Of a stretch of 64,000 nucleotides of DNA, positions 4,048-42,947 are shown piece after piece; positions within the stretch are counted from its first letter, which is position 1, and every line of letters starts with the position of its first letter. This DNA comes from an uncultured Mesorhizobium sp. (GTDB taxonomy: Bacteria; Pseudomonadota; Alphaproteobacteria; Rhizobiales; Rhizobiaceae), in assembly GCA_937958475.1 (NCBI GenBank), contig CALFXR010000065.1, positions 8,617 to 72,616 on the forward strand, written 5' to 3'. The notes under the pieces were generated by a model. It was not told the origin of the DNA, ran no database searches, and saw only the letters and a program-made list of their open reading frames with translations. The position numbers and the translations under genes are program-made.

Positions 4048-4789
4048 ATGTCAATCGCCGTGCGCTTCTCCGGTGGAGGGGCTTGTCCGGACCGGCGTCG
4101 GCGGGCATGCAGTTTTCTGCTCCGGCTCGATCTTCCGGCGCCGAAACGCGTCAGCCGGAGCCGCCGATCGGGACCTGGAGCAGGCGGATCTTCTTCCCTG
4201 GCGTACATCGTGCCGAACATCTCGCAACGGGCCAGGCCCGTTGGCTCTTCGGTGCCGTCACCGGCCGGCACGGCGTCGCGATCGTCGAGACTCGACGCCG
4301 GCGGGATCATCGTCATGAGGTTCGGGCCGGCCCGCTTGCCCGGCCCTCGACCTTTGCCTCGCCGTTCCCCGTGCCGGGCCGCCCGGACCGGAACAGAGAA
4401 TGGCTCGCCGGTTCGGTGAACGCCCGCGCCCCCTCGCGCCTGGCGTCGCCGTATTCCCCGGCTATCGCGATCCCGAGATTGTCATGAAGCGCCGACACGG
4501 CGCAGCCTTCCACGGCAGACAGTCCGGGCCATTCCCGCCGGGATCAGCCGAACCGCCGGACGGATACTGGGCCGCCCGCAACGCCGTCACGGCGGCGCTT
4601 CATGGCCTGTTTCATCGCCGCCCGCATATTCACCTGATCGCCGGCCTCGATCGTCGCCTGATCGATCCGGGACGCGGCCAGCACTCGGCCCGGCAAACGC
4701 CTCGCCGGGCCCCGCGAGCACGGCGCCGTCGACGACCGGGTTTCGCCCCGGGCCGTGCCTTCGGCGGCCCGCCCAGGCGCGCTACCACG

Positions 4790-6235
4790 CTACTGAACGT
4801 AGATCTCGCCGCCGTTCAGTTCGCTGGTGACATCATAGAACTCGTTCGCCGGCATGCCGCCCTTGTGGACCGAGATCCTGTCGCCGATCCTGACGCTCAC
4901 CGTCTCGCGCTCGCCCTCGATGCTGAGCACGGCAAGCGAGGTCTCGTTGCCGCCGCCGTCGACCTTGTAGAGTTCGACCAGCATACCGGCGTTGTTGTAG
5001 AAGGTCACCGACGCGGGGTCTCCCGGATTGAGGAACTGGCCGACCTTGCCGAAACCCCCGTCGACCTCTTCCTTGAAGGTGTTCAGGCCTTCTCCGGTTT
5101 CCGTCACCGCGGTGTCGATGCCGTCCCGGACCGGCTCGACGGTCTCGTAGAGCACGAAGGTGGTGCCGGCCACGATGCCGACGGTCGTCACGCCGACGGC
5201 ACCGCCGATCATGACCTTGGCGGTCTTGGAAAGCCCCTTCTTGGCGGCCTTGGCCGCCGGCACGGTCACGGCGGGCACCGCCGCCTTCAAGGCGGGGGCG
5301 GCTGGGAGCTGGCGGACAGCCTTCACCGCCGTTTTCTGCACGCCGCCGATCTTGGTCATCGGCGGCTTCTTCGGCTTGGGCGGAGCCGCGCGGGCTACGC
5401 CGCCGAGGTCGTCGCCCAGGGACGCCGCCTTCCGGTTCAGGGCCTCGAGTTCGTCGATGCCGATGAACTGCTCCATGTAGATGTCGTTCTTCGGCTTGAT
5501 GATGTCATTGGCGTTGGCGTAGTTGGTGCGCGGCGTCGGATCGACATAGCGCGGTGCGTTGTCCAGGGCCTCGCGGTTCAGCTGCTCCAGCAGCTCTTGG
5601 CCGCCATAATGGGCGTTCGGATCGATTTCGGCGTTGCGCTTGAGCAGTTCCGACACGTCGTCGTACTGGCCGCCGCCGCGGTCGGCGAGGTTGTCGGCGT
5701 TTCGCCGCAGCAGTTCGTTGTAGTCGACATACTGCCCGGCCTGGTCGAGATTGCGCGGCGCGCCATCCCCGGCGGCGCCGAACTGCTTGGCGACAGCGTC
5801 GATGTCATCATAGCCGCTGAAAGCCGGCGCCTTGGGCGCCCCCGCTTTGTCGCCGAGCTGCTTCGCCAGGACGTCGATGTCGTCGTAGCCGCTGAAGCTG
5901 GGAGCCTTCGGTGGGTTGGCGCCGCGCACGGCGGCCTCGCCGATGTCGTCGAAGAGATTGTCGACGGGCGGCACTGCCCGGCCGGCGGCGCCGACGCCGC
6001 CCTGGACGATGTCGTCCGCCACGCCGTCCAGCTGGCGGCCGCCCTTGACCGCGCCCTGGACCGCGTCGTCGATGACGTTGTCGAGCCGCTTGCCGGCCTT
6101 GATGCCGCCCTCGATGACGTCGTCGGTGATGCCCCTGATGGCCTTGGAGATGCCACCCGTCTGCGCCTGCGCACCGGTGGCGAGCAGCACGGTCAGGACG
6201 ACGGCATGCGCCGTCGATGCGAGCAGGCGATGCAT
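4790..6235 (-). CDS. exported hypothetical protein (481 aa): signal peptide, internal repeats, late TM helix, C-terminal VHL-beta-like module
   Basis: Met 35 of ORF 4790..6337 gives MHRLLASTAHAVVLTVLLATGAQAQ. Repeats present: DDVIEGG/DDAVQGA/DDIVQGG and PKAP[SA]FSGYDDID x2. Hydrophobic helix VMIGGAVGVTTVGIVAGTTFVLY. The last 74 aa (ASVTFYNNAGMLVELYKVDGGGNE...) match the module found in the neighbouring genes. Confidence 0.85.
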   Translation of the reverse strand: MHRLLASTAHAVVLTVLLATGAQAQTGGISKAIRGITDDVIEGGIKAGKRLDNVIDDAVQGAVKGGRQLDGVADDIVQGGVGAAGRAVPPVDNLFDDIGEAAVRGANPPKAPSFSGYDDIDVLAKQLGDKAGAPKAPAFSGYDDIDAVAKQFGAAGDGAPRNLDQAGQYVDYNELLRRNADNLADRGGGQYDDVSELLKRNAEIDPNAHYGGQELLEQLNREALDNAPRYVDPTPRTNYANANDIIKPKNDIYMEQFIGIDELEALNRKAASLGDDLGGVARAAPPKPKKPPMTKIGGVQKTAVKAVRQLPAAPALKAAVPAVTVPAAKAAKKGLSKTAKVMIGGAVGVTTVGIVAGTTFVLYETVEPVRDGIDTAVTETGEGLNTFKEEVDGGFGKVGQFLNPGDPASVTFYNNAGMLVELYKVDGGGNETSLAVLSIEGERETVSVRIGDRISVHKGGMPANEFYDVTSELNGGEIYVQ

Positions 6236-6267
6236 CTTGATACCCTCGCTCTTCGAGATCTGCGGCG

Positions 6268-7752
6268 TCATAGCGGCGCCCCCGCGAACGTGACCCGCTG
6301 GTCGGCCTCTTCGTTCGGCACGAAGCCGCCCATCCACTGGTCGTCCTGGGCAAGTCGCCAGGCCTGGCCGACCTGGATCGGCTGGACCACCTGGAAGCCC
6401 GGATTGATCGTCATCACCCAGAGCGGTGCGCCGCCGTCCATCGGGTCGACGAAGACGTCGACCGGGGCTTCGGACACGTTCTGGAGGATGACGCGGACCA
6501 TGCCCGCCGGCAGCTGCTGCTGCACACGCGGCGCGTTGGGGTCCAGGACGACGACGTCGGCTTCCTCCTCGGCGGCGGGCTCGGCCGCCAGTTCGCCCTC
6601 CGCCGGTGGAAGCAGCTCGTCCTGCGTTGCCTCCGCCTCGTCCGGAGGCGCCGGGAGTTCGGTTTCAGCGGTGGCGGCGGCTTCATCGGCAGGCGGCAGG
6701 AGTTGGCCCTCGGCCGGAACGGCGGCATCGGCGGCAGCCTCTTCCTCCGCCGGCAGCAACTCCTCCTGAGGCGCACTCGCCTCGTCGGCGGCGGGGAGGA
6801 GTTCGGTCTCGGCGGGCGCCGCGGCTTCGTCCGTCGCCGGCAGCAACTCGGCTTCGGCCGGAACGGCGGCATCGGCAACCGCCTCCCCCTCCGCCGGCAG
6901 CAACTCCTCTTGGGCGCTGGCCTCGTCGGCGGCGGGGAGGAGTTCGGTCTCGGCGGGCGCGGCGGCTTCGTCCGTCGCCGGCAGCAACTCGGCTTCGGCC
7001 GGCACGGCGGCATCTGCGGCCGCGCCTTCCGTTTCCAAGGGAACGACTGGCTCACCTTCCGCGAGAGGAAGTTCGCTCTCGGCGCTTCCACTCTCCGTCG
7101 GCTGCTCGGCCGTCTCCTGTGGCTCGCCCTCGATAACCTGACCTTCGAGCGGTTGCTCCGCGATCAGGGCCTCGCCCTCAGTGACCTGTCCCTCGAGCGG
7201 CTGCTCCTCGATCACCTGCGGCTCGCCTTCGACAACCTGGCCCTCGGCCGGTTGTTCGGACGTCTCCTGCGGGTCGCCTTCGACAACTTGACCTTCGAGC
7301 GGCTGCTCCGCGATCTGTGGCTCGCCCTCCGTGGCCTGTCCCTCGAGCGGCTGATCGATCACCTGCGGCTCGCCTTCGACAGCCTGGCCGTCGGCCGGCT
7401 GTTCGGACGTCATCTGCGGGTCGCCCTCGGTAACCTGACCTTCGAGCGGCTGCTCGACGATCTGTGGCTCACCTTCGACGACCTGGCCTTCAGCCGGCTG
7501 CTCGGACGTCAACTGGGCTTCGCCTTCGGCCGCTTGCCCGTCAGCCGTCGCGGGATCGACCGCGGCGTTCGGATCGGGCGCGACGCTGCCGTCCTGCTGC
7601 ACGACCGCCTCGCCCTGTGCGGCCTCCTGGGCGGCAAGCGGGGCGACGCCGACGAGAAGGGCGGCGACGGCGACGGACGATGCCATCGACCGGATGCGCG
7701 CCGCGAAAACGGAACGTGCGGTCATGGGGATCATTCCTGCTGGCTGGCTCAT
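6268..7752 (-). CDS. exported hyper-acidic Glu/Pro/Gln repeat protein (494 aa) with C-terminal VHL-beta-like module
   Basis: The last 494 aa of ORF 6268..9960. The ATG at 7752-7750 overlaps the TGA of the upstream gene (ATGA). Signal peptide ...SSVAVAALLVGVAPLAAQE (alternative starts at Met7/Met10). It has 16-aa EGQxxEGEPQxxEQPL repeats and 46-aa repeats with E-L-L-P-A motifs. The C-terminus reads VRVILQNVSEAPVDVFVDPMDGGAPLWVMTINPGFQ...GQAWRL. Confidence 0.85.
   Translation of the reverse strand: MSQPAGMIPMTARSVFAARIRSMASSVAVAALLVGVAPLAAQEAAQGEAVVQQDGSVAPDPNAAVDPATADGQAAEGEAQLTSEQPAEGQVVEGEPQIVEQPLEGQVTEGDPQMTSEQPADGQAVEGEPQVIDQPLEGQATEGEPQIAEQPLEGQVVEGDPQETSEQPAEGQVVEGEPQVIEEQPLEGQVTEGEALIAEQPLEGQVIEGEPQETAEQPTESGSAESELPLAEGEPVVPLETEGAAADAAVPAEAELLPATDEAAAPAETELLPAADEASAQEELLPAEGEAVADAAVPAEAELLPATDEAAAPAETELLPAADEASAPQEELLPAEEEAAADAAVPAEGQLLPPADEAAATAETELPAPPDEAEATQDELLPPAEGELAAEPAAEEEADVVVLDPNAPRVQQQLPAGMVRVILQNVSEAPVDVFVDPMDGGAPLWVMTINPGFQVVQPIQVGQAWRLAQDDQWMGGFVPNEEADQRVTFAGAPL
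6583..7026 (-). repeat. coding tandem repeat, 138-bp / 46-aa unit (AADAAVPAEAELLPATDEAAAPAETELLPAADEASA(P)QEELLPAE), about 3 units
   Basis: Near-identical DNA blocks lie 138 bp apart (for example around 6789 and 6927). The protein carries eight LLP[AP] motifs in aa 243-390. Confidence 0.8.
7087..7539 (-). repeat. coding tandem repeat, about 16-aa unit (EGQvvEGEPQxxEQPL), roughly 9 units
   Basis: aa 72-222 of the 494-aa protein. The periodicity is visible in both the protein and the DNA. Confidence 0.8.
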
Positions 7753-10700
7753 TTCACGTCCCCGCAGACCGGGTAATTGTAGGCCATGACGATATCGGCG
7801 ATGCCGGTGGGGTCGAGCGACGACCACGGGAAGTCGGACGCGGGGTTCTGCGCCTCGGCGCCGGACATCATGGTCTCGACTATGGCGTTGATGCGCTCGT
7901 CCGAGATGGAGCCGACAACCTTGTTTCGGATCATCTCCTTCAGCGCGTCCTTCATCTTGACTTGCGACGCGATCTTGGTGCCGCCCCAGATGATCGAAGT
8001 CAGCGCCGTCCCGATCGCGGCGTCGACGATCAGTTCCTTGCCGATCGTCTTGAAGCCCGCCTTCAGGGCTTCCTTCACGCTCGCCTTGAGGCCTGCCTTG
8101 AAGGCTTCCTTCGCCCCCATCTTGGCGGCGACCGTGCCGGCCGTCTTGCCGGCGGTGCCGCCTGCCTTGGCGCCGGCGGTCGCGCCCGTCGAGCCGCCCG
8201 CGGTGACGACGGTCAGGGCGATGCTGCCCGCCGCGATGACCGGCGACAGCACCTGGTCGACGATCGCGCCGTCGCACGTCGCCTTGTCGATCGCGCAGCC
8301 GGCCCCGCAATTGTGGGGCAGCTTCGCCGGGCAGGCGTTCCAGCAGACCGGCCCGACGCCGGCGAAGCCCGCCTTGCAGCCGTCGTAGCACAGCCCGGCG
8401 TCGTTTACGGCGCCGGCGTCGCAGCTCATCAGGCTGGCCTCGCGCGTGTAGGTGTGCTTGGCGCAGAATATGCCGCCGTCGGTCATCGGCGCCGCGCAGC
8501 TCGGCGTGCACAGGTTGGTGATCACCGGCGCCTGCTCGTAACCCGCCTTGCAGGTCTCGTAGACGATGGTGTCGCCGTTGGCGGTGACGCAGTTGTCGCC
8601 GTGCGCCTCGCGGCAACGCCGGCGCGCGCCGTCGAGGCCGGTCTCTCCGGATGCCTCGTAGGTGCCGAAGGAGAAGAACCAGGCCAGCCCGTCGCCGACC
8701 GCCTTGGCGGCCTCCCCGGCGTTGACCGGGTATTCGTCGCGCTTGTAGGGCGCGGGCTTGAAGCAGGTCAGGCCGTCGTCGCGGTATCCCGCGGGGCAGG
8801 TGGCCTGCCTGCAGACGAAGAAGTCGCAGACGTAGCCCGGCCGGGCATCCGGCCAGCACAGGCCCGCGGTGTCCTCCGAGAAGCCTGGCTCGCAGTTGCG
8901 CGGCACGCTGCCGACGCCGCGGCCATAGCTGTCCTTCCAGCAGTACTGCGGCCCATCGGCCAGCGCCGACTGCTTGGCCTGTTCGGCGGCGAAGTCGGTG
9001 ATGATCTTGTCGATGCTGATGTTGGTCATCGCCAGTATCTGGTCGTCCGTCGGGTTCCACGGCAGGTCCACCGTCTGGCCGTTGGCGTCGCCGACGAAGT
9101 AGGGCATGTCCTGGCCGAGCTTCTCCTCGGTGTCGCCCTTGTAGAACCAGAGCACCGATTTCGGCAGGGCGCGCGTCGAGATCGAGTGCCCGGCCGGGAT
9201 CTTGACCAGCGTGACGTGTTGCTCGCTCTCGTTGACGACCGTCACCGCGGCGACCTCCTCGGAATAGTTGGAGAAGGTGACCTCGACGCTTCCGGGACCC
9301 ATCTGCGCCACGGCGGCTTCGTTCGGCCGGTACGGGATGTTGACGGCCGCGCCGTCGGCGTCCGGTACCACGAAGGCCTCGCCGACCGGTTCGTCGGCGA
9401 ACTGCTTCAGGAACCAGATGGTCGAGCCCGGCAGGAAATTGGCGTGCCGGCTCATGTTGCCGGTGCCTTCGCCCACGTCGAGGGCGAACAGGAGCGCCCG
9501 CTTGCCGTCCTTGTCGGCGGTGACGACGTCGAGCGGCTCGCCGCTGTCGTTCATCAGGCGGACCTTGACGCTGCCGGGGCCGGCCTGCTCGGCCTGGGTG
9601 GCGTTGAGCGGCAGGTCGACGCCGTAGAAGCCGTCCAGCACGGTGTAGTCGTCGCTGACACGCCTGTCGGTGCCGGCGCGCACGAAGGAGAGCACGGTGC
9701 CGGGAATGCCATGGCCCTGGACGCCCTTCGCACCCGATTCGATGTCCATCATGTCGACCCGCGATCCGTCGGGACGGTTGACCTGCACCGTGATGGGGAA
9801 TGGCAGGAGATTGGCGAAAAGCACCATGCTGCTGCCGGGACCCGACTGTTCGGCGACGACTGCGCCACGCGGGTCGAACGGAATCGAGACCGTCTCGGGG
9901 GCCGACGCCACCTTGTACGAATAGCGCAGCGCCTCGCTGGTGTCGGTGCGGTAGAACCACAGCTCCGTTCCCGGCCGGGCCCGCTGGGTGACGCTCTGCC
10001 CCGCCGGGATGCGCGCCAGCGGCACCGTCTTGCCGTCGTCGACAAGGGCCGCGATCACGTCGACCTCGAGCGTATTGGCGAAGGACAGCTCGACGCTGCC
10101 CTTGCCGTTCTGGACCCTCAGGATCCTGGCGACCGCCGGATCGGGGGCGGCGGCCTTGGCCGCCTCGATGCTGACCACCTCGCCGTCGAGGCCGGTCACG
10201 GCATAGGGGCCGCTGACCAGTTCGCCGCCGTCCTTGCGGTAGAAGTAGAGGCTCGCCTGCGGCAGGACGCGCTGCCTGACCGTCTGCCCGGCGGGAACGG
10301 CGAAGAGAGGATGCGCGGTCTTCGCTTCGTCCACCACCGCGGCGACGATATCGTGCTCGGTCGTGTTGACGAACTCCGCCTCGACGCTGCCTTCGCCCCG
10401 CTGGCGCTGCTGCATCTGGGAGAGCTCAGGCGCGGCGGCGCGTTGTTCGATGCTGACCACCTCACCGTCCAGGCCCGTCACGGCATAGGGGCCGCTGACC
10501 AGCTCGCCGCCGTCCTTGCGGTAGAAATAGAGGCTCGCCTGCGGCAGGACGCGCTGCCTGACCGTCTGCCCCGCGGCAACGGCGAAGAGCGGATGCGCGG
10601 TCTTCGCTTCGTCCACCACCGCGGCGACCACATCGTCCTGCGTGGTGTTGACGAACTCGGCTTCGACGCTGCCTTCGCCCTGCTGGCGCTGCTGCATCTC

Positions 10701-11702
10701 GGAGAGCGCAGCCGCGGCGGCGCGCTGCTCGATGGTGACCACCTCGCCGTCGAGCCCCGTCACGGCGTAGGGTCCGTTGACGACCTTCGTGCCGTTTTCG
10801 GCATAGAACCACAATTCCGCGCCCGGCAGCACGCGTTCCCTGGCCGATGCGCCGGCGGCGATGTCGAACAAGGGGACGGCGTCCTGGCCGTCGGTGACGG
10901 TCACCGTCACGACGTCGGCCGTCGTGTTGACGAACTCGGCCTCGATGCTGCCTTCGCCCTGCTGGCGCTGCCGTTGCGACAGGACGGGGTCGGCAGCGAC
11001 CGACGCCTGCGGGATCGTGACGACGTCGCCGTCTGCGCCGGCGACCGTGTAGGGTTCGCCGACCGCCGTGTTCGTGGCGACGTCGTAGAACCTGAGCGTC
11101 GTGCCCGGCAGGACGCGCTGCGCCGCCGTCTCGCCGGCCTTCACGCCGAACAGCGCATAGGCCTTGTCGGCGTCGTCGAAGACCACCGCGGCGACGAGGG
11201 CGGAAGTGGTGTTGGAGAAGCTGAGTTCGACGCTGCCCGAGCCGGACTGCTGCGCCCTGATCCGGGCCAGCGGCGAACTGTCGTCCTGCGCGGCGGGCGG
11301 AGCCTGCGCCTGCTGGGAATAGGGTACGCTCACGGCTTCTCCGGGCAGGCCGGCGACGGGGTAGACGTCGCCGAGCCAGTCGCCGTCCTGGGCGAAGCCG
11401 AGCGACACGGTGCCGGCGGGCGCGATGACGTCGATCGACTCGCCGGCCGAGAGCTCAGCCAGATCCTGCTGGTCCTCATTCGCGTCGATGGCGATGACGG
11501 TGACCGTGCCGGCGGAACCGTTCGAAACGGAGACGACGGTGTCGGTATCGGCGACACGGCACACGAACGGCGCATAGGCCGGCACCGGCATGCGGCTCAT
11601 CTGCGGGGCGCGAGGCAGTGCGGTTGCGGTGTCGACCAGGAGATTGAGGGACAGGAATACGGAAAGTATGCAGCGGAATGCCGCCGCGAATGCCCGCGCC
11701 AT
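7749..11702 (-). CDS. large exported protein (1317 aa): nine tandem beta-sandwich modules, Cys-rich region, hydrophobic/Lys-Ala-rich segment, small C-terminal domain
   Basis: Full ORF. Signal peptide MARAFAAAFRCILSVFLSLNLLVDTATA. Repeated GSVEaeFvNTT...aG....RvLPg..LwFY......Y.V.G.DGevV.I modules. 21 Cys fall in aa 921-1143. Hydrophobic stretches at aa 1151-1170 and 1223-1241. Confidence 0.9.
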   Translation of the reverse strand: MARAFAAAFRCILSVFLSLNLLVDTATALPRAPQMSRMPVPAYAPFVCRVADTDTVVSVSNGSAGTVTVIAIDANEDQQDLAELSAGESIDVIAPAGTVSLGFAQDGDWLGDVYPVAGLPGEAVSVPYSQQAQAPPAAQDDSSPLARIRAQQSGSGSVELSFSNTTSALVAAVVFDDADKAYALFGVKAGETAAQRVLPGTTLRFYDVATNTAVGEPYTVAGADGDVVTIPQASVAADPVLSQRQRQQGEGSIEAEFVNTTADVVTVTVTDGQDAVPLFDIAAGASARERVLPGAELWFYAENGTKVVNGPYAVTGLDGEVVTIEQRAAAAALSEMQQRQQGEGSVEAEFVNTTQDDVVAAVVDEAKTAHPLFAVAAGQTVRQRVLPQASLYFYRKDGGELVSGPYAVTGLDGEVVSIEQRAAAPELSQMQQRQRGEGSVEAEFVNTTEHDIVAAVVDEAKTAHPLFAVPAGQTVRQRVLPQASLYFYRKDGGELVSGPYAVTGLDGEVVSIEAAKAAAPDPAVARILRVQNGKGSVELSFANTLEVDVIAALVDDGKTVPLARIPAGQSVTQRARPGTELWFYRTDTSEALRYSYKVASAPETVSIPFDPRGAVVAEQSGPGSSMVLFANLLPFPITVQVNRPDGSRVDMMDIESGAKGVQGHGIPGTVLSFVRAGTDRRVSDDYTVLDGFYGVDLPLNATQAEQAGPGSVKVRLMNDSGEPLDVVTADKDGKRALLFALDVGEGTGNMSRHANFLPGSTIWFLKQFADEPVGEAFVVPDADGAAVNIPYRPNEAAVAQMGPGSVEVTFSNYSEEVAAVTVVNESEQHVTLVKIPAGHSISTRALPKSVLWFYKGDTEEKLGQDMPYFVGDANGQTVDLPWNPTDDQILAMTNISIDKIITDFAAEQAKQSALADGPQYCWKDSYGRGVGSVPRNCEPGFSEDTAGLCWPDARPGYVCDFFVCRQATCPAGYRDDGLTCFKPAPYKRDEYPVNAGEAAKAVGDGLAWFFSFGTYEASGETGLDGARRRCREAHGDNCVTANGDTIVYETCKAGYEQAPVITNLCTPSCAAPMTDGGIFCAKHTYTREASLMSCDAGAVNDAGLCYDGCKAGFAGVGPVCWNACPAKLPHNCGAGCAIDKATCDGAIVDQVLSPVIAAGSIALTVVTAGGSTGATAGAKAGGTAGKTAGTVAAKMGAKEAFKAGLKASVKEALKAGFKTIGKELIVDAAIGTALTSIIWGGTKIASQVKMKDALKEMIRNKVVGSISDERINAIVETMMSGAEAQNPASDFPWSSLDPTGIADIVMAYNYPVCGDVK
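8274..8942 (-). other. Cys-rich region with repeated C-x2-G-[FY]-x(n)-C units (aa 921-1143 of the 1317-aa protein)
   Basis: NCEPGFSEDTAGLC, TCPAGYRDDGLTC, TCKAGYEQAPVITNLC, SCDAGAVNDAGLC, GCKAGFAGVGPVC. I counted 21 cysteines by hand. Confidence 0.7.
9057..11549 (-). repeat. nine tandem ~85-100 aa protein modules (aa 52-882 of the 1317-aa protein)
   Basis: Hand alignment of module starts: VVSVSNGS, VELSFSNTT, IEAEFVNTT, VEAEFVNTT x2, VELSFANTL, SMVLFANLL, VKVRLMNDS, VEVTFSNYS. Each is followed by a conserved G and an aromatic pair (LWFY/LYFY/IWFL). Confidence 0.8.
10140..10703 (-). repeat. near-identical tandem DNA duplication, 2 x 282 bp (modules 4 and 5)
   Basis: The sequence at 10196 onward (cacggcataggggccgctgaccag...) recurs at 10478 onward with only a few mismatches. 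The protein copies, aa 334-427 and 428-521, are almost identical. Confidence 0.85.
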
Positions 11703-12076
11703 GGATCTTACCAGTAGTTGAGCGTGTCCCTGCGCAGCGACCGTGAACGGGTTTCCGGCGCCTGTCCATGGGGGGCGGGGACTTTATTTACGCAACGTCA
11801 GCCCTCGGCCCCGCCGCTTGTCGCCGGGACGGACAACTCGGCGTGACCAGCGGAAGGCGCCAACGATCACGCTTGACGCAGCGGAACCGGCGGCTGTAGC
11901 CTTCGCGCGCGCATTTGTCCGGGACGGGATGATCGCGGCGGAAATTGCAGGCGAGTGCGAGGCCACGGGGCACGCGCGTTGCCTGGTGCTTCCGCGCTGA
12001 AACGGTACCGTCCTGCGGCACCGTCTGGGTGGGAACGACCTCCGCATCCATTGCGGTGGGACTTGGGGCAGGGGGA

Positions 12077-13315
12077 ATGCGCATGACTCGCGTCGTAGGT
12101 TTCCTGGTGCTGGTTCTGTCGGCGCTGGCCGCGGGGCTGCCGGCTCTGGCGCAGAGCGGAGGCGTCCAGCTGCGCCTCACCAACCAGATGACCGAAAAGG
12201 TCGACTATTACGTGGTACCGCCTGGCGGCAAGCCGACCTTCGCCGGCTCGGTCGAAGCCGGGGCGGTGGTCGATGTCGAATCGAAGGCGGGCCAGGGATA
12301 TGTCTTCGCGGTCAACCGCGTACCCTTCCAGAAGTACACGACGCGCTCGGAGGTGTTCCAGGGCCTGACGCTCGCCCCACAGGGCCAGCAGAAGCCGCCG
12401 GTGGTCGCCAACTCCCGCCAGAAGCCTGCGTCGGGGGGCAAGACCGTCGATGCCGCGGCGGCCGACAGCGGCGGCGGCGGATCGGCGCCATCGAATGACG
12501 GACTGATATGGATGTTCTCCCAGTTCCAGGACGACAGGGGGATCGATACTTCGGTGCTCTACTTCTCGGTACCGGAGACCGACAACGTGCAGTTTTCCGC
12601 CGCATGCAGCGCGCAGGACGCGACGCCGCGAGTCATCCTGTCGGCGGATGTCTCGCGCCTGAAGAACGGGGCGGCGACCAGTGTGCGTTTCCTCGCCTCC
12701 GGCTTCGATGCCACCATCCGGGGCAAGGTACGGCTCAGCGAAAGCGGCGAGGGCCAGGACGGCATCGACATGGCGGTCGGCGCCGACGACCCGCTGTGGC
12801 AGGCGTTCGCCGCCCGCAACGCCGTGAACTACAGCGTGCAGGGACAGGCCCCGCTGCGGCTGCCGCTGTCCGGCGTGCAGGAGCCGCTCGGCAACTTCCT
12901 CCGCGACTGCGCGCAGTTCGCCGGCGGCGGCGGCGGCGGCAGCGGCGTGGCCGGCGACGCGACGCAGCTGTTCTCCGGCGGCACGAGCGGCGGTTCGGCG
13001 AACACGGCCGGCGCGACGGCCGATTCCTGCGCGGCGCTCGACGGCGTCGTCTCGAAGAATGGCGGCAAGAAGGTCGCGGTGGAGTTCGTCAACCGCACCG
13101 ACGAGTACCGCGTTCTCATGTGGATCGATTTCGAGGGTACGCCGGTCGAGTACACGCAGCTCGAAGGGGGCCAGGCGTACCAAGTCGAGACCAGTTCCAC
13201 GCATCCCTGGATGGTCACCGACGGCCCGGGCAACTGCATCGAGAAATTCATGCCGAAGCCCGGCCAGAGGCAGATCCTGATTTCCAGGAAGAGCCCCGGA
13301 TTCGGCGACGAGTAG
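12077..13315 (+). CDS. exported protein (412 aa) with C-terminal von Hippel-Lindau beta-domain-like module
   Basis: Met 45 of ORF 11945..13315 gives the signal peptide MRMTRVVGFLVLVLSALAAGLPALAQS, preceded by a G-rich SD. An N-terminal module (LRLTNQMTEKVDYYVVPPGGKP...) is followed by a Gly-rich linker. aa 335-382 (VEFVNRTDEYRVLMWIDFEGTPVEYTQLEGGQAYQVETSSTHPWMVTD) align without gaps to pVHL 74-121. Confidence 0.9.
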   Translation: MRMTRVVGFLVLVLSALAAGLPALAQSGGVQLRLTNQMTEKVDYYVVPPGGKPTFAGSVEAGAVVDVESKAGQGYVFAVNRVPFQKYTTRSEVFQGLTLAPQGQQKPPVVANSRQKPASGGKTVDAAAADSGGGGSAPSNDGLIWMFSQFQDDRGIDTSVLYFSVPETDNVQFSAACSAQDATPRVILSADVSRLKNGAATSVRFLASGFDATIRGKVRLSESGEGQDGIDMAVGADDPLWQAFAARNAVNYSVQGQAPLRLPLSGVQEPLGNFLRDCAQFAGGGGGGSGVAGDATQLFSGGTSGGSANTAGATADSCAALDGVVSKNGGKKVAVEFVNRTDEYRVLMWIDFEGTPVEYTQLEGGQAYQVETSSTHPWMVTDGPGNCIEKFMPKPGQRQILISRKSPGFGDE

Positions 13316-13361
13316 GAAGGCGCGGCTTCTTGGGTCCAACGTCCGTAAAGAGGAGTCCGGC

Positions 13362-14024
13362 ATGAGACGTCTGCCGTTGATCGCGGCCTGCAGCGCGGTA
13401 GGCCTGCTGGTGCTCGCCAGCCAGGCCGCCGCGCAGTCGAGAGAGTTCTTCTGCGGCGAAGACTATGTCGTGAAGCTGAAGGTCATCGACAAGAAGACCA
13501 TCTCGGCCGGGCCGATCGCGGGGCGGACGCTGGCGCTGATGCAGGTTCCGGGAAAGACGATGGTCTATGCGAACGGCAAGACCTCGCTGGAGATCGGTTC
13601 CGACCAGAAGCGGATCGCGGTCCGCGTCGTCGGCGAGGAGCCCCTCGTCTGCGTCTTCCCGGCCCCCGAGGGTACGGCCGAGCGCAGCGCAGACACCGAC
13701 GCCGGTCAGCCGGCCGGCGAAAAGCCGGTCGCGATCAAGCCGGTCGTGAAGAACCCCACGACGGCGACCGCCGATCCCGCTTCGAAGGGCTTCGCCGCGA
13801 AGTCCTGGGGCGGCGTCGTCCGATCCGGCCCCGGGATGGAATTCAAGCAGGTCGCAAGCCTCAAGGAAGGCGAAAATATCACGGTGATCGAGGACGCCGG
13901 CGTCGAGATGAACGGCTACCGCTGGTACAAGATCCGCTTCGGCGGCAACAGGACCGGCTTCCAGTGGGGCGGCATCCTCTGCCCGATCGGCAAGACGGTC
14001 GCCGGGGCGTTCCAGAGCTGCTAG
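13362..14024 (+). CDS. exported protein (220 aa) with C-terminal bacterial SH3-like domain
   Basis: Signal peptide MRRLPLIAACSAVGLLVLASQAAAQ. The C-terminus (AKSWGGVVRSGPGMEFKQVASLKEGENITVIEDAGVEMNGYRWYKIRF) matches the SH3b pattern (ALRSGPs...v..l..G..v.v......gW.kV). It starts 46 nt after the preceding gene on the same strand. Confidence 0.8.
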   Translation: MRRLPLIAACSAVGLLVLASQAAAQSREFFCGEDYVVKLKVIDKKTISAGPIAGRTLALMQVPGKTMVYANGKTSLEIGSDQKRIAVRVVGEEPLVCVFPAPEGTAERSADTDAGQPAGEKPVAIKPVVKNPTTATADPASKGFAAKSWGGVVRSGPGMEFKQVASLKEGENITVIEDAGVEMNGYRWYKIRFGGNRTGFQWGGILCPIGKTVAGAFQSC

Positions 14025-14249: not shown

Positions 14250-14325
<76 letters not shown>

Positions 14326-15067: not shown

Positions 15068-15213
15068 GATCGCGCCGCCGACCCGGCCATCGCGCCAAGG
15101 CCGGCGGTGGACGAAGGGCGGGGACCGGTGAGAGACGCCGCCCGGCGAACGGCGGTTTCCGTTTGGCGAAGGACGCGCTAGGCTGGAGAGATCCTCCATC
15201 AGGGTCCCCGCCG

Positions 15214-15816
15214 ATGCGCCTCCTCCCGCTTCTCGCCACCCTTGCCCTCGCCGCGACGCCCGCCGCTGCCGCCGAGTCGATCCTCAGCGCCTATACCGAC
15301 CTCGACGCGGAACGCGACTGCACCGTCATCGAGTTGGACGAGGAGGGCGGCGGCGTCGCCAACCTCGTCTGCAACGGCTACAAGGGCTATCCGGTGCTGA
15401 TCTTCGCCGGCGATCTCAGGGAAACGCTGTTCTACGGCTATCCGCCCGAGGGCGATCTGCCGCCGGCCTGGGAAAGCTTCGGCGCGTTCAACTCCACCGG
15501 ACCCAAGATCGAATGGCGGATCGCGAAGAACGGCGACGACGAGATCCCCTTCGCCACGATCCACCGCTGGTTCGTCAGTTCGGTCGACGATCCGGAAAAG
15601 CAGATCGAGGTGCTGGCGGTCGCCAAGGTCGCGCAGGTTTCGGCGCGCGAGGGCTGTACGGTCGGCCTGGTGGTGGCCAGCGGCAACGCCAAGGCCAACG
15701 AAACGGCGCGCAAGGTCGCCGACGAGAACGCGCGCGACTTCGCCTGCGGCGTCGACCAGCGCATCGAGATCGCCGGCAAGGTGCCGCTTCCGGACTTCTA
15801 TCGCCAGGAGCCGTAG
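15214..15816 (+). CDS. hypothetical exported protein
   Basis: Met 18 of ORF 15163..15816 gives the signal peptide MRLLPLLATLALAATPAAAAE. Codon usage looks coding. I do not recognise a family. Confidence 0.65.
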   Translation: MRLLPLLATLALAATPAAAAESILSAYTDLDAERDCTVIELDEEGGGVANLVCNGYKGYPVLIFAGDLRETLFYGYPPEGDLPPAWESFGAFNSTGPKIEWRIAKNGDDEIPFATIHRWFVSSVDDPEKQIEVLAVAKVAQVSAREGCTVGLVVASGNAKANETARKVADENARDFACGVDQRIEIAGKVPLPDFYRQEP

Positions 15817-27018: not shown

Positions 27019-27306
27019 CTATTCGGGGTAGCAGGCCGCCGGCACGTTCGGCCAGACGGCGCGGTCGCAGCCGAAGACCTCCCGCGTCTGCCGGAACTCG
27101 GCGCTCACCGGGCCGGTGACGACCGGATCGACGCCATAGGGCGCGTCGGGAAAGAGGCTCGCCGCATCGACCGGCAAAGGGTTCTCCGGCGCGCTGCCGA
27201 TGCCGGCAAGCGGCGTCGCGCCCGATGCCATGGCCAGCATGGCCACCAGCGCGCCGGGCAGGGCGACGCGCAGCAGGGCGGAAGCGAGGGCGCGGTAACT
27301 GTTCAT
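27019..27306 (-). CDS. small hypothetical exported protein
   Basis: Met 49 of ORF 27019..27450 gives MNSYRALASALLRVALPGALVAMLAMASG. I do not recognise a family. Confidence 0.45.
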   Translation of the reverse strand: MNSYRALASALLRVALPGALVAMLAMASGATPLAGIGSAPENPLPVDAASLFPDAPYGVDPVVTGPVSAEFRQTREVFGCDRAVWPNVPAACYPE

Positions 27307-27507
27307 CGGGACGCTCAACGGCTGAACGGCGAAAGCGATCCACCGTTCGTTAACGATCTCCATTCGACACGAGATTGGTAAAGGAAGCGCTACGAAGAGC
27401 GCCCGGGCGGCCGCGCGCCGCCACCGCCGCATCGGATTGGCGCTCGTCACGGGCGACGGAAGCGCCTAAAGTCGTCGCCGCAGAGCCCGACGAGGAACAA
27501 CGACATC

Positions 27508-30529: not shown

Positions 30530-30607
30530 CGCGCCGGCCGCCGGGCGATTGCCTCGCCCGGCCCCGGTGTCCTATCCTCGCGTTTGCAAGGCCGATCGGG
30601 GGATGAA

Positions 30608-31069
30608 ATGCGCGTTGCAGGCAGAACCCTTCTTGCCCTCGTGTTCGGCTTCTTCGGCGGCTGGGCGTTCGCGACCTCGGCGTCCTTCCGCTACATGGAC
30701 GCCTTCGACATCTTCGACCGCGACGGCGGCGGCGCGATGGGTGCCTTCTTCATCATCGGTCCGTTCTTCGGCGTGATCGCGGCGATCGTGCTTGCCGGCA
30801 TGGTCCTGGTGCGCGGTCTCGCCGCCGGCCAGCCGAAGCCCGCCGGCTGGCAGCCGCCCTCGGCGGAATCGCGGCGGCTGCGGACCTGGATCCTGGCCGT
30901 GCTGGTCGTGGTCGTGGTCTACATGATCGGCTGGGCGTTCATCGACCTCTCCGGGCCGTGGGCGCCGAAGAGCGCCGTGCGTTCGCTGTTCTACAACGGT
31001 ATCCCGCTGGCGGCCGGCCTTCTGTGCGCGCTCTTCGTCGTCCGCAGGCGCGCAAGAAGCACCGCCTGA
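30608..31069 (+). CDS. hypothetical membrane protein
   Basis: ORF 30584..31069 with four hydrophobic segments. I do not recognise a family. Confidence 0.5.
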   Translation: MRVAGRTLLALVFGFFGGWAFATSASFRYMDAFDIFDRDGGGAMGAFFIIGPFFGVIAAIVLAGMVLVRGLAAGQPKPAGWQPPSAESRRLRTWILAVLVVVVVYMIGWAFIDLSGPWAPKSAVRSLFYNGIPLAAGLLCALFVVRRRARSTA

Positions 31070-40500: not shown

Positions 40501-41556
40501 ATGAACACGATCCGCACTGCGATGCTCCTGGCGGCGATGACCGCGCTCTTCATGGGCGTCGGCTACCTCATCGGCGGCTCGGGCGGCATGACGATCGCAT
40601 TCCTGATCGCCGCCGCGATGAACCTGTTCAGCTACTGGAACGCCGACAAGATGGTGCTGCGCATGCACCATGCGGTCGAGGTCGACGAAAGAAGCGCGCC
40701 GGAGTTCTACGGCATCGTGCGCGACCTCGCAGCGCGCGCCGGCCTGCCGATGCCGAAGGTCTACCTGATCGACAGCCCGCAGCCCAACGCCTTCGCCACC
40801 GGCCGCAACCCGGAAAACGCCGCCGTCGCCGCTACCACCGGCCTGCTCCAGCGCCTCTCCTACGAGGAGGCCGCCGGCGTGATGGCGCACGAGTTGGCGC
40901 ATGTGAAGAACCGCGACACGCTGACCATGACGGTGACGGCAACGCTCGCCGGCGCCATCTCCATGCTCGGCAACTTCGCCTTCTTCTTCGGCGGCAACCG
41001 CGACAACAACAATCCGCTCGGCTTCGTCGGCGTGCTCGTGGCGATGATCGTCGCCCCTCTCGCCGCGGCCATGGTGCAGATGGCGATCAGCCGCACGCGT
41101 GAATATTCCGCCGACCGGCTCGGCGCCGAGATCTGCGGCCATCCGCTCTGGCTCGCCTCGGCGCTCGACAAGATCGCCGCCGCGTCGGGACGCATCCGCA
41201 ACGAGGACGCCGAGCGCAACCCGGCGACGGCGCACATGTTCATCGTCAACCCGCTGTCGGGCGAACGCATGGACAACCTGTTCTCGACGCACCCGGCGAC
41301 CGAGAATCGAATCGCCGCGCTGGAGCAGCTCGCCCAGCAGTGGCAGGCGGATGCGCGCGGCGGTCCGGCGCGGCCCCGCGCCGCGGAACGCCGTGCACCC
41401 CCTCCCGAGCCCGCGGAACCCTCCGCAGCGCCGAAGGCCGGTCCTTGGGGAACTCCCGAGGCTGCCGAGGCGCCTCCGGTGCCGACCCCGCCGCAGAAGA
41501 AGCCTTCGGGACGCTGGGGCCGCAGCCCGACCGGACCGAAGGGTCCGTGGTCGTGA
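40501..41556 (+). CDS. htpX: zinc metalloprotease HtpX
   Basis: [26 protein letters not shown]...[23 protein letters not shown]...[13 protein letters not shown]. The C-terminal tail is Pro-rich. Confidence 0.9.
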
Positions 41557-42947
41557 CCGAGGCGGCTGCCCAGCCGGGCCGGGGCAGGGCCGATCGCAGG
41601 CAGGAACCGGACGAAGGCGTCGCCGGCCTCGCGGCGCGCCAGGTGGCGGCGCGGCTGCTCGGCGCCGTCATCGACGCGAAGACGCCGCTCGACGCGCTGA
41701 CCGACGCCGAGCACGGCCACCCGCAGTTCCGCGCGCTCTCGCCGCGCGACCGTTCGCTGGTCAAGGCGATCCTCGCCACGGCATTGCGCTACCGCATCAC
41801 CGTCGGTGCCCTGATCGCGCGGCGGCTCGACCGCCCGCTGCCGCAGAACGCGCGCTCGCTCGAGCACATCCTCCACGTCGCCGCCGCGCAGATGCTGTTC
41901 CTCGACGTGCCCGACCGCGCGGCGGTCGACATGGCCGTCGCCCACGCCAAGTCCGACCCCCGGACCGTCCGTTTCTCCGGCCTCGTCAACGCCGTGCTGC
42001 GCGCACTCGGCCGGGTGAAGGAACGCGCGCTTCCCGCCGCGCTCGCGGCAAGCGACGACGCTCCCGACTGGTTCTCGCGACGCCTGAAATCGGCCTATGG
42101 CGAGGAGCGAGCTGCGGCGATCCTCGCAGCGCACCGCGCCGAGCCGCCGATCGATTTCACCGTGAAGTCGGACGCGCACGGCTGGGCGGAGCGCTTCGGC
42201 GGCATCGTCCTGCCGACGGGAAGCGTTCGCGTCGCCAGGCTTCCCGGGCCGGTCCAGGACCTGCCGGGCTTCGCCGAGGGCGAATGGTGGGTGCAGGATG
42301 CCGCCGCGGCGCTGCCCGCGCGCCTTCTCGGCGACGTGCGCGGCCTTGCCGTCGCCGACCTCTGCGCCGCGCCCGGCGGCAAGACGGCGCAACTCGCGGC
42401 CGCCGGCGCACGGGTCACCGCGATCGACCAGTCGCGCAGCCGCCTCAGGCGGCTCACCGCCAATCTCGACAGGTTGAAGCTCGCAGCGGACATCGTCGAG
42501 GCCGACCTTCTCACCTACGTTCCGCCCACGCTCTTCGACGCCGTGCTGCTCGACGCACCGTGCTCCTCGACCGGCACCGTGCGCCGGCATCCCGACGTCC
42601 CGTGGACGAAAGGACCGGCCGACATCGCCAAGCTCGCCGGCCTGCAACGGCGGCTTCTCGAACGCGCCGTCGGCATGGTCAGGCCCGGCGGTCTCGTCGT
42701 CTTCTCCAACTGTTCGCTCGATCCGGAGGAGGGCGAGGCCCTGCGCGCCGCCTTCCTGTCGTCGGACCCCGGAGCCGTCGCCGATCCGATCCGCGCGGAC
42801 GAACTTCCCGGGACCGCCGCGTTCGTCACGCCGGAAGGAACGTTGCGCACGACGCCCGCCGACCTCGTCGGCGAGAACATTTCGCTGTCGGGCATGGACG
42901 GCTTCTTCGCGGCGCGCTTCCGCCGTGCCGGTTCCGGCTCGGGATAA
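41547..42947 (+). CDS. rsmB: 16S rRNA (cytosine-C5) methyltransferase RsmB/Sun family
   Basis: A NusB-like N-terminal half is followed by a SAM methyltransferase ([27 protein letters not shown]). A GTG start at 41547 or 41553 overlaps the end of htpX. Confidence 0.8.

Follow-up and report, generated by a model that had tools for sequence, protein, structure and literature searches.

A five-gene cluster of Hyphomicrobiales encoding predicted exported proteins, four of which share a VHL-beta-like module

A stretch of 64,000 nucleotides (nt) from the genome of an uncultured Mesorhizobium sp. (GenBank assembly GCA_937958475.1, contig CALFXR010000065.1; the whole stretch is called the window below) contains a cluster of five genes, here named P1 to P5, the products of which all begin with a predicted Sec signal peptide. 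Four of these proteins carry copies of one module, which is predicted to adopt the fold of the beta domain of the human von Hippel-Lindau protein, pVHL. The C-terminal copy in P4 belongs to the VHL beta family in sequence, in predicted fold and in its ligand pocket. Tentatively, and at somewhat less than even confidence, we explain the cluster as a chromosomal, Sec-exported cell-envelope set of Hyphomicrobiales built on a single VHL-beta-fold module and combining a scaffold, a pocket-bearing adaptor and an SH3b domain.

BLASTP self-comparison returned full-length self matches only and left internal repeats undetected, and a hidden Markov model (HMM) approach was used instead. An HMM seeded on eight copies of the P1 repeat, the first copy being left out, recovers nine modules in P1 (amino acids (aa) 57-129, 154-233, 249-327, 342-421, 436-515, 533-611, 621-700, 708-793, and 802-884); the divergent first copy is found with 23.9 bits (E 9e-9). 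In a six-frame translation of the window, nothing else reaches E 0.5 with this HMM. Compared with P2, P3, and P4, this model derived from a single genome gives weak links (E 0.003-0.5). Family profiles were therefore compared with one another, instead of single sequences: 130 repeats from 18 P1 homologues, 19 P4 N-termini, 26 P4 C-termini, 6 P2 C-termini, and 5 P3-type C-termini. Using hhalign, the P1 repeat is related to the C-terminus of P2 (96.3%, E 1.6e-9), to that of P3 (96.1%, E 3.3e-9), and to both the N-terminus (95.5%, E 1.6e-8) and the C-terminus (93.9%, E 1.6e-7) of P4, and the N-terminus of P4 is related to the C-terminus of P2 (96.7%, E 3.7e-10). The control, the middle domain of P4 against any module, gives at most 0.7%. 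Moreover, separate module HMMs cross-detect one another within orthologous loci. Since profile comparison and HMM cross-detection agree, a count of 9 + 1 + 1 + 2 modules in P1, P2, P3, and P4 is supported. An original prediction, made by a model from the letters of the window, had proposed nine copies in P1 and the presence of the module in four of the five proteins. The recovery of the ninth copy by the eight-copy HMM bears out the former claim, and hhalign values of 94-97% against less than 1% for the control bear out the latter.

The relationship with pVHL is direct for one copy only. The C-terminal domain of P4 matches the Pfam VHL family (PF01847) over aa 325-383, with 33.8 bits for a threshold of 21. 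The modules of P1, P2, and P3 and the N-terminus of P4 have no PF01847 match and are joined to the VHL domain by hhalign only. A search of the PDB with a P4-family profile retrieves human pVHL (E 1e-4) with an ungapped alignment of 62 residues. The AlphaFold2 model of P4 (mean pLDDT 83) shows three confident domains, and the best 50 PDB matches found with it by Foldseek are all pVHL chains (E ~2e-5, ~94 columns, 23% identity, TM(target) ~0.5). A model of aa 701-1317 of P1, built from P1 homologues only, contains two modules with pLDDT values of 70-87. Its top 45 PDB matches are pVHL (E ~3e-5), and the only entry other than pVHL among the top 50 is the PepT2 ectodomain. Against viral structures, Foldseek gave only low-TM matches to uncharacterised proteins of giant viruses. 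Taken as predictions, these models support the pVHL beta-sandwich fold for the modules of P4 and P1. The VHL-beta-like character attributed to the module in the original prediction is thus supported by Pfam, by the PDB profile search, and by the Foldseek results for two models that were built independently of each other. A characterised adhesin or Ig-like family had been considered there as the competing assignment; no Pfam match to Big, FN3, cadherin or similar families was obtained at E up to 1, and pVHL is the top fold match in the PDB.

An alpha domain or a BC-box was not found in P4: the AlphaFold2 model has no helices past residue 320, and the Pfam match covers the beta domain only. The protein ends ~10 residues past the last beta strand, the alignment finishing with PGFGDE. 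Because the alpha domain and BC-box are absent, P4 is not a subunit of an E3 ubiquitin ligase.

In pVHL, the hydroxyproline site is made of Trp88, Tyr98, His110, Ser111, His115, and Trp117 (PMC9528729). Bonds to the hydroxyl group come from Ser111 and His115; His110 takes part through its backbone only (PMC9528729). To survey this pocket, the P4-type domains of the fetched bacterial loci, 83 of them distinct, were aligned with human pVHL. The residue equivalent to W88 is W in 81 of the 83 domains and the one equivalent to H115 is H in as many (81/83). At the position of W117, W is found in 75/83 and F in 7/83; Y98 is Y in 56/83 and F in 6/83; S111 is replaced by T in 73/83 and kept as S in 9/83. 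N78 of pVHL is N in 82/83. In P4 itself, T372, H376 (the His of an HPW motif), and W378 are among the pocket residues. As judged from these alignments, the ligand pocket, and not merely the fold, is under selection in the exported bacterial P4-type proteins, and we regard this as the strongest single result of the study. The P1 repeats, the C-termini of P2 and P3, and the N-terminus of P4 retain the structural core, made of the F-x-N-x-[ST] motif, the central Gly, and the W/Y-F pair, but not W88, S111, and H115.

A second line of evidence comes from the distribution of the genes. All five are found with the same layout in a Mesorhizobium metagenome-assembled genome (MAG) that is 86% identical. 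Among the other fetched loci (cited by their L numbers), metagenomic locus L008 contains P1, P2, P3, and P4, the P5 slot being absent, and in a Hyphomicrobiales MAG (L010) P1 and P2 are convergent with P4 and P5. Hoeflea alexandrii (L013) has P1, P2, and a P4 with its N-terminal module. In Mongoliimonas terrestris, P1, P2, two P3-type genes, and P4 are co-directional and form one operon. Altogether, P1, P2, and full-length P4 occur together in every sufficiently long locus, representing five Hyphomicrobiales lineages; the full-length P4 genes of L007 and L011 lie on contigs too short to judge their neighbours. The identity of P1 orthologues ranges from 33 to 89%. The P4 family as such comprises 41 clusters in a set of 5.8 billion proteins, nearly all with a precomputed PF01847 annotation and none named, and when one genome was scanned for each species, ~100 P4 relatives emerged across Hyphomicrobiales and Rhodobacterales. 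A minority of these relatives have the N-terminal module, and it is exactly those that adjoin P1 and P2. In the vicinity of the ~65 P4-like proteins devoid of this module, P1, P2, and P3 are never found. In 80 loci, no common neighbour of the P4-like genes could be identified, only lineage-specific synteny (adenylosuccinate lyase, LysR, a gene resembling those of pentameric ligand-gated ion channels). A lack of co-conservation would have counted against the original prediction; P1, P2, and P4 are co-conserved in five lineages, and P3 and P5 are less constant members.

The P5 slot is variable. In the window, in L002 and in L010, the encoded protein has an N-terminal two-Cys domain followed by SH3b. 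In Hoeflea alexandrii, it has the module followed by SH3b, and in a Hyphomicrobiaceae MAG (L011, 3311-4102), the module followed by an LprI lysozyme-inhibitor domain (PF07007, 82 bits). The N-terminal module thus travels with the cluster, as seen in the P5-slot proteins of Hoeflea and L011. The LprI fusion of L011 and the SH3b domain of P5 hint at a connection with the cell wall. Orthologues of P5 are present in L002, L005, L010, and L086. Its aa 153-200 match SH3_3 (PF08239) with 29.9 bits for a threshold of 27, and a P5 profile retrieves from the PDB the bacterial SH3 structure 2krs (E 0.0095) as well as 2kq8 (E 0.74, below significance). A by-eye impression that the N-terminal domain of P5 could be a MliC lysozyme inhibitor was dropped, having no Pfam or PDB support. 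In PDB sequence searches with the P1 C-terminus, P3, P5, and profiles A4 and A5, nothing significant was found beyond pVHL and SH3.

A different surrounding of the P4 and P5 homologues was observed at L005 (4920-11945; JGI 3300058929), where they form the end of a co-directional gene set. This set also encodes a Thiol_cytolysin protein (229 bits), a second protein with a sandwich resembling domain 4 of the cholesterol-dependent cytolysins (CDC), and a 547-aa protein of unknown function. A functional link of VHL/SH3b pairs to membrane-active proteins is possible at this locus.

Downstream of its nine modules, P1 has a C-terminal unit (aa 885-1317) that is its best-conserved part. The region 921-1143 contains 21 Cys, 20 of them invariant, which presumably form ~10 disulfides. 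It is followed by two hydrophobic helices (1147-1170 and ~1226-1247, from hydropathy) and by an invariant LDPTGI...AYN.P.C tail that ends in Cys. An exhaustive HMMER search with a profile of this unit yielded 3,212 representative clusters at E <= 1e-3, of which 661 at E <= 1e-30, and aa 885-1317 of P1 constitute a full-length member of the family, with E values down to 1e-205. No match to this family region was found in Pfam, NCBIfam or the PDB. Its members are spread over many bacterial phyla, with examples in Gamma- and Betaproteobacteria, Myxococcota, and Bacteroidota, and at least one is from a diatom. Some contain nothing but the unit (~335-360 aa); usually it is joined to lectin-type domains, and the partners include ricin, tectonin, tachylectin, discoidin, fascin, hemopexin, PAN, and crystallin-type domains. 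Because the fusion partners are lectin-type and similar domains, the variable part of the family is typically a ligand binder. For instance, the 'RICIN domain-containing protein' of Nevskia ramosa belongs to this unnamed family and has the same 20 Cys, hairpin, and LDPTGI tail as P1; these relatives have a lectin in the variable slot, where P1 has its nine VHL-like modules. In some of them, a lectin domain is placed after the tail. For this, both ends of the hairpin would have to be on the same, outer side of the membrane, and the Lys-rich loop between the helices would fit a cytoplasmic location according to the positive-inside rule. From these features, we infer that the unit is a hairpin membrane anchor presenting a disulfide-rich domain together with a variable ligand-binding array. 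The P1 orthologue of one close relative (an assembly with 96% identity) was called as two pieces, P0047 (910 aa) and P0303 (427 aa); a pseudogene, a frameshift or faulty assembly could account for this.

Short motifs occur in arrays in both P2 and P3. P2 has a net charge of -99. Its acidic Pro-rich repeats are tandem repeats at the DNA level (6634-7020 and 7099-7547) and contain ~10 E-L-L-P-A-type motifs, as in the peptide AEAELLPATDEA. In the P2 orthologues (L002, L008, L010, L013, and L019), the repeat units are unrelated, yet each protein has 7-16 acidic E-[LM]-L-P-[PAD]-type motifs. By eye, the N-terminal parts of P2 in Hoeflea and Mongoliimonas resemble ricin/beta-trefoil domains; no Pfam match was obtained, and the resemblance is unconfirmed. 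P3 is kept as an architecture and not as a sequence: the signal peptide is followed by an extended disordered region, rich in Pro and containing Tyr motifs, then by a late hydrophobic helix rich in Gly, Ala, Val, and Thr, and optionally by a C-terminal module. The positional equivalents in L008, L010, L013, and L019 have the same architecture. The disordered region of P3 carries YDD[IV]D and Y-x-D-x-x-x-L-L-K motifs, and in the P3-type disordered regions nearly every Tyr lies within [GNH]-Y-x-x-[LVA]-P or YDD[VI]D (see the peptides LNYGALPSDPP and SGYDDIDVLAKQ). These short motifs of P2 and P3 may serve as leads to candidate ligands of the modules.

The N-termini of P1 to P5 have a positively charged n-region, a hydrophobic core of 12-20 aa (hydropathy), and an AxA-type site, as judged by hand, with cleavage predicted at ATA|L, LAA|Q, AQA|Q, ALA|Q, and AAA|Q. 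The signal peptides are kept in the orthologues of P4 and P5. No catalytic, transport or DNA-binding family was detected in P1-P5 at curated cutoffs in Pfam and NCBIfam. Apart from VHL and SH3_3, the sole Pfam match above cutoff is that of whole P1 to PLipase_C_C (PF05506; 29.2 bits for a cutoff of 24.4); no single stretch passes at the domain level, and the precomputed annotations tag this match as 'faint'. The features listed in the original prediction fared well on the whole. The five signal peptides were borne out by hand inspection of charge, hydropathy, and AxA motif, and the SH3b-like domain of the fifth protein by Pfam SH3_3 and the PDB profile search. The Cys-rich region, the acidic Pro-rich repeats, and the late hydrophobic helices could all be located, from Cys positions, DNA repeats, and hydropathy. 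The claim that no enzymatic domain is present holds at the domain level, the unsupported whole-protein match of P1 to PLipase_C_C being the reservation. The extracytoplasmic signature of the set is made of the five signal peptides, of invariant Cys residues (20 in P1, 4 in P4, and 4 in mature P5), and of the SH3b domain of P5. Together, the signal peptides, the disulfide-rich domains, and SH3b suggest the label of an envelope system.

As to the location and topology of the proteins, their binding partners, and their physiological role, we infer the following arrangement. P1 would be anchored in the inner membrane via its C-terminal helical hairpin and would display in the periplasm its ten-disulfide domain and its nine pocket-less modules. 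P2 and P3 would be exported, largely disordered, multivalent Pro-rich partners, usually ending in one module. P4 would be a soluble adaptor. Its constant middle and VHL part would read a proline or hydroxyproline peptide, or another small hydroxylated ring ligand, and its N-terminal module, which is lineage-specific, would dock onto the module-bearing P1, P2 or P3 of its own cluster. The main argument for such module-mediated docking is that the presence of the P4 N-terminal module strictly correlates with the presence of P1 and P2. Contacts between modules, and between modules and motifs, would build a multivalent scaffold on P1; the nearest candidate ligands of the P4 pocket would be the neighbouring Pro motifs of P2 and P3. 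Finally, the SH3b domain of P5, of peptidoglycan type, would tie the assembly to the cell wall.

Several observations weigh against this arrangement. First, 12 of the 13 modules are without the pocket residues, which only the C-terminal copy of P4 keeps. Second, most P4-like proteins occur without P2 or P3, and for this reason the pocket ligand is probably a general envelope component and not specifically the P2/P3 motifs. These motifs were also defined post hoc, inside internal repeats; shuffle statistics are weak and their significance is overstated. Third, the P1 hairpin and tail are modelled by AlphaFold2 as long helices with low confidence. Fourth, the late helix of P3-type proteins (5150-5260 in the window, aa ~325-362 of P3; also L008, L010, L013, and L019) has a Lys/Arg-rich stretch on its N-terminal side and acidic residues on its C-terminal side; this charge pattern contradicts a simple topology with a signal peptide and a type-I anchor. 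Lastly, no prolyl hydroxylase or other 2-oxoglutarate oxygenase was found in the ~35 window open reading frames (ORFs) scanned, ~6 shorter ORFs of the list based on GC content at third codon positions (GC3) being outside the scan.

A possible, if rather doubtful, alternative is that of a passive structural or adhesin-like fibre, in which the modules would be rigid spacers, comparable to the Ig-like repeats of adhesins and S-layer-associated proteins, and P2 and P3 Pro-rich spacers; the cluster would build or decorate a structure of the envelope or surface, with no specific recognition of peptides. Tandem beta-sandwich arrays with a membrane anchor and acidic Pro-rich partners are typical of structural envelope proteins, and both the lack of the pocket in all modules but one and the absence of any enzyme from P1-P5 in Pfam and NCBIfam would be natural in a fibre. 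However, five pocket residues are near-invariant in the 83 P4-type domains, which indicates ligand binding for at least P4. In addition, no Big, FN3, cadherin or other adhesin match was obtained, no outer-membrane anchor, autotransporter, type I secretion system or sortase signal was seen, and the hairpin predicts anchoring in the inner membrane and not display at the surface.

It is unlikely that the cluster encodes a membrane-active toxin, with P1 being released and inserting its hairpin into a target membrane and P4 and P5 acting as helpers or protective proteins. The idea draws on the position of the L005 P4 and P5 pair directly downstream of the Thiol_cytolysin and CDC domain-4-like proteins, on the fact that a disulfide-rich unit joined to varied lectin 'targeting' domains, such as that of P1, is common in secreted pore-formers, and on the SH3b or LprI lysozyme-inhibitor domains of the P5-slot proteins. 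On the other hand, the CDC link comes from a single genome, the Thiol_cytolysin domain is absent from P1-P5 in Pfam, and no pore-forming family was matched in Pfam, NCBIfam or the PDB. No secretion system or lysis gene lies nearby, and the ~55-residue Lys-rich loop, which fits the cytoplasmic loop of a resident membrane protein, would not easily cross a target membrane.

The pVHL-HIF recognition module is usually regarded as an animal invention. A more far-reaching version of the envelope arrangement, which we consider improbable, would have the exported bacterial VHL domains be true proline/hydroxyproline readers. P4 would then bind prolyl-hydroxylated, hence O2-dependent, Phi-L-P motifs (Phi, hydrophobic residue) on P2- and P3-type proteins, as a modification-dependent switch of assembly outside the cytoplasm, which would be a counterpart in prokaryotes, or the source, of pVHL-HIF recognition.

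Mimicry of eukaryotic signalling, with a VHL-like reader and Tyr/Pro motif arrays (YxxP, as in SH2/SH3 ligands) delivered to a host or algal cell, is very improbable. The domain is otherwise known from eukaryotic pVHL, YDVP or YxxLP motifs recur, and one member of the P1 C-terminal unit family is from a diatom. Moreover, Hoeflea alexandrii, like several further carriers, lives in association with marine algae. Nevertheless, the proteins have Sec signal peptides only and the cluster has no genes of type III, IV or VI secretion systems; the many disulfides and SH3b point to the envelope of the bacterium itself; an alpha domain or elongin-binding box is missing; and the P4 family is broad in free-living Alphaproteobacteria. 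An artefact, in which high-GC sequence would have given rise to the ORFs or the shared module by chance, as the many long spurious ORFs (e.g., 7464-11717, plus strand, 1417 aa) and the weak single-genome HMM links to P2 and P3 might suggest, is effectively refuted by the GC3 of 0.86-0.91 in the called frames, by orthologues of conserved architecture down to 33% identity, by the contrast between the hhalign values of the modules and of the control, and by the confident AlphaFold2 folds.

Among known systems, the closest relative of P4 is the pVHL beta domain itself (PF01847; PDB 1VCB, 1LM8). The C-terminal domain of P4 shares with it the sequence match, the 62-residue ungapped alignment, the predicted fold, and the pocket positions (with Thr for S111), and the fold, together with the F-x-N / Gly / aromatic core, is also common to the other twelve modules of the cluster. 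Unlike pVHL, P4 is exported via a Sec signal peptide, has conserved disulfide Cys, and contains its VHL domain within a three-domain protein; without alpha domain and BC-box, it has no elongin/cullin E3 context. The P1 repeats touch a single Pfam family, PLipase_C_C (PF05506), a functionally uncharacterised beta-sandwich that occurs as tandem copies in exported proteins. In contrast to phospholipase C, P1 has no phosphoesterase domain, and the PC-PLC equivalog model gives 8 bits for a cutoff of 580 bits. In the cellulosome, one anchored multi-module protein, the scaffoldin with its cohesin array, gathers partners that have a matching interaction element. The likeness of the cluster to this system is one of functional analogy only: P1 would be anchored and has about nine beta-sandwich modules in tandem, and module-bearing partners are encoded next to it. 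In sequence and in fold, the cluster is unrelated to cohesin or dockerin, its partners include no enzymes, and the location would be periplasmic and not at the cell surface.

Another prokaryotic carrier of PF01847 is the accessory protein of type X retrons (Mestre et al., 2020; PMC7736814). It is an IHF-like DNA binder with one transmembrane helix and a cytoplasmic VHL domain, encoded beside a reverse transcriptase (PMC7736814). The authors of that study state that the function of prokaryotic VHL domains is unknown (PMC7736814). By contrast, the proteins of the present cluster are exported, and no reverse transcriptase, msr/msd RNA or PADLOC match accompanies them: PADLOC found no defence system for P1-P5, and no reverse transcriptase is encoded by the flanking genes. 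A VHL protein of Litorilituus has also been the subject of an in-silico note (PMC9002001). Besides these two publications, the literature searches brought up nothing on VHL domains in prokaryotes. In the literature, no description was found of an exported multi-gene bacterial VHL-module system or of the Cys-rich hairpin family. Provisionally, no known system matches the whole set, the newness resting on the absence of matches.

The coordinates of the genes and of their domains are collected in Table 1.

Table 1. Genes, domains, and intergenic region of the cluster (coordinates are positions in the window).
Feature	Coordinates	Strand	Description or evidence
P1 gene	7749-11702	minus	1317 aa: signal peptide, nine VHL-fold modules (predicted), Cys-rich domain, hydrophobic hairpin, conserved tail
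Nine tandem pocket-less VHL-like modules, P1 aa 57-884	9051-11534	minus	HMM, AlphaFold2, Foldseek
P1 C-terminal unit, aa 885-1317	7752-9050	minus	profile search
Cys-rich domain, P1 aa 921-1143	8274-8942	minus	Cys positions; invariant columns (A2, A4)
Helix, ~55-aa Lys/Ala-rich loop, second helix, tail DFPWSSLDPTGIADIV.AYN.P.C, P1 aa 1147-1317	7752-8264	minus	hydropathy, conservation
P2 gene	6268-7752	minus	494 aa: signal peptide, acidic Pro-rich repeats, C-terminal module
P2 C-terminal module, aa ~413-494	6271-6516	minus	hhalign 96.3%
P3 gene	4790-6235	minus	481 aa: signal peptide, disordered region, late hydrophobic helix, C-terminal module
P3 Gly-zipper-like hydrophobic helix, aa 341-362	5150-5215	minus	hydropathy
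P3 C-terminal module, aa ~403-481	4793-5029	minus	hhalign 96.1%
Divergent P1/P4 intergenic region	11703-12076	no strand	374 bp; promoters presumed
P4 gene	12077-13315	plus	412 aa: signal peptide, N-terminal module, middle domain, VHL beta domain
P4 N-terminal pocket-less module, aa 27-112	12155-12412	plus	hhalign
P4 conserved middle domain, aa ~140-285	12494-12931	plus	conservation
P4 canonical VHL beta domain, aa ~318-405	13028-13291	plus	Pfam, PDB profile, Foldseek
P5 gene	13362-14024	plus	220 aa: signal peptide, N-terminal two-Cys domain, linker, SH3b domain
P5 N-terminal two-Cys domain, aa 25-100		plus	
P5 SH3b domain, aa ~147-212	13800-13997	plus	Pfam

The TGA of P1 is overlapped by the ATG of P2 as ATGA (7749-7752), P3 starts 32 nt past the stop of P2, and 46 nt separate P4 from P5. 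The five ORFs with their coordinates, the overlap, and both gaps are exactly as in the original prediction, according to the ORF listing and the translations. The P1/P4 spacer is 86% identical to the orthologous spacer of the Mesorhizobium MAG. A scan of it for the sigma-70 consensus gave no match, and promoter/terminator and Rfam scans found only the flanking tRNA, with no Rfam family in the spacer. The window is ~68% GC and contains numerous long spurious ORFs on both strands. Within the GC3 range given above for the called frames, which refers to P1, P3, P4, and P5, P1 is at the upper end (0.91). In the case of P2, a GC3 filter chose a 357-aa antisense ORF instead; P2 is taken as coding because orthologues exist with a conserved C-terminal module. 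This antisense ORF (6703-7776, plus strand) mirrors P2, as the 1417-aa ORF at 7464-11717 mirrors P1. Both are by-products of high GC content and could mislead naive ORF callers.

The cluster is flanked by ordinary chromosomal genes of housekeeping type: an ABC transporter to the left and, to the right, tRNA-Ala, YggT, DUF167, pyrophosphatase, GNAT, and LemA genes. The tRNA-Ala(CGC) gene (14250-14325, minus strand) lies directly past P5, with the same placement in the 86%-identical Mesorhizobium MAG. At the left boundary (~4317-4789), the ABC transporter of the window faces amidase/RpiR in that MAG. The left flank thus differs from that of the closest relative, the cluster edge is a synteny break, and therefore the five genes behave as a unit. 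Among the ~35 window ORFs scanned, no integrase, secretion system or defence gene was found. Four ORFs have coding-type GC3 and no Pfam match (40863-42647 and 27022-27450, minus strand; 30584-31066 and 15163-15813, plus strand). The remainder of the window is of housekeeping type: NAD-GDH (1599 aa), BipA, LeuRS, PurH, PriA, Acs, a heparinase II/III-like protein, and a transglutaminase + VWA pair.

Two further observations concern the surroundings of P4-like genes in other genomes. A separate domain of ~90 aa, which we call 'domain X', recurs: the cytolysin-like proteins have it N-terminally, some P4-like proteins contain it, and it is encoded by small ORFs that immediately precede P4-like genes. 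Its pattern is ...G.Y/F...G.W.E....G...F.E..R....V.L.D..R.....LDL....I.Y..., and its sites are L005:4920-6089 and 7856-9988, L035:8348-9280, L021:9207-9908, L031:9028-9921, L030:4837-5598, and the P4-like ORFs of L078, L080, L082, and L083. A VHL-like nature of domain X was ruled out, hhalign giving at most 1% against the modules. In a group of the Methyloceanibacter type, the gene that immediately precedes the P4-like one matches Neur_chan_memb, the transmembrane region of pentameric ligand-gated ion channels, with 31 bits (L060:1432-2658; syntenic in L023, L025, L026, L045, L046, L057, L077, and L085). This neighbourhood may reflect lineage synteny only.

The hydroxyproline pocket of pVHL is the recognition element of oxygen sensing in animals and the handle of most PROTAC drugs. 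A conserved pocket of this type in bacterial periplasmic proteins would surprise specialists. The proteins of the cluster are already public as unnamed hypothetical proteins, some of them with automatic PF01847 tags. With a pVHL-type pocket conserved in more than 80 Sec-exported alphaproteobacterial proteins, the role of the fold and of the pocket before or outside HIF can be asked. A subset of the pocket carriers belongs to a five-gene cluster with thirteen copies of the same fold, and two cultured carriers, Hoeflea alexandrii and Mongoliimonas terrestris, can be grown. In addition, the C-terminal unit of P1 exposes a second unnamed family, of 3,212 representative clusters, for which there is neither a structure nor a Pfam model. 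Should the cluster turn out to be an ordinary structural component of the envelope, the value of the finding would be smaller yet real, as it would annotate several families of 'hypothetical proteins'.

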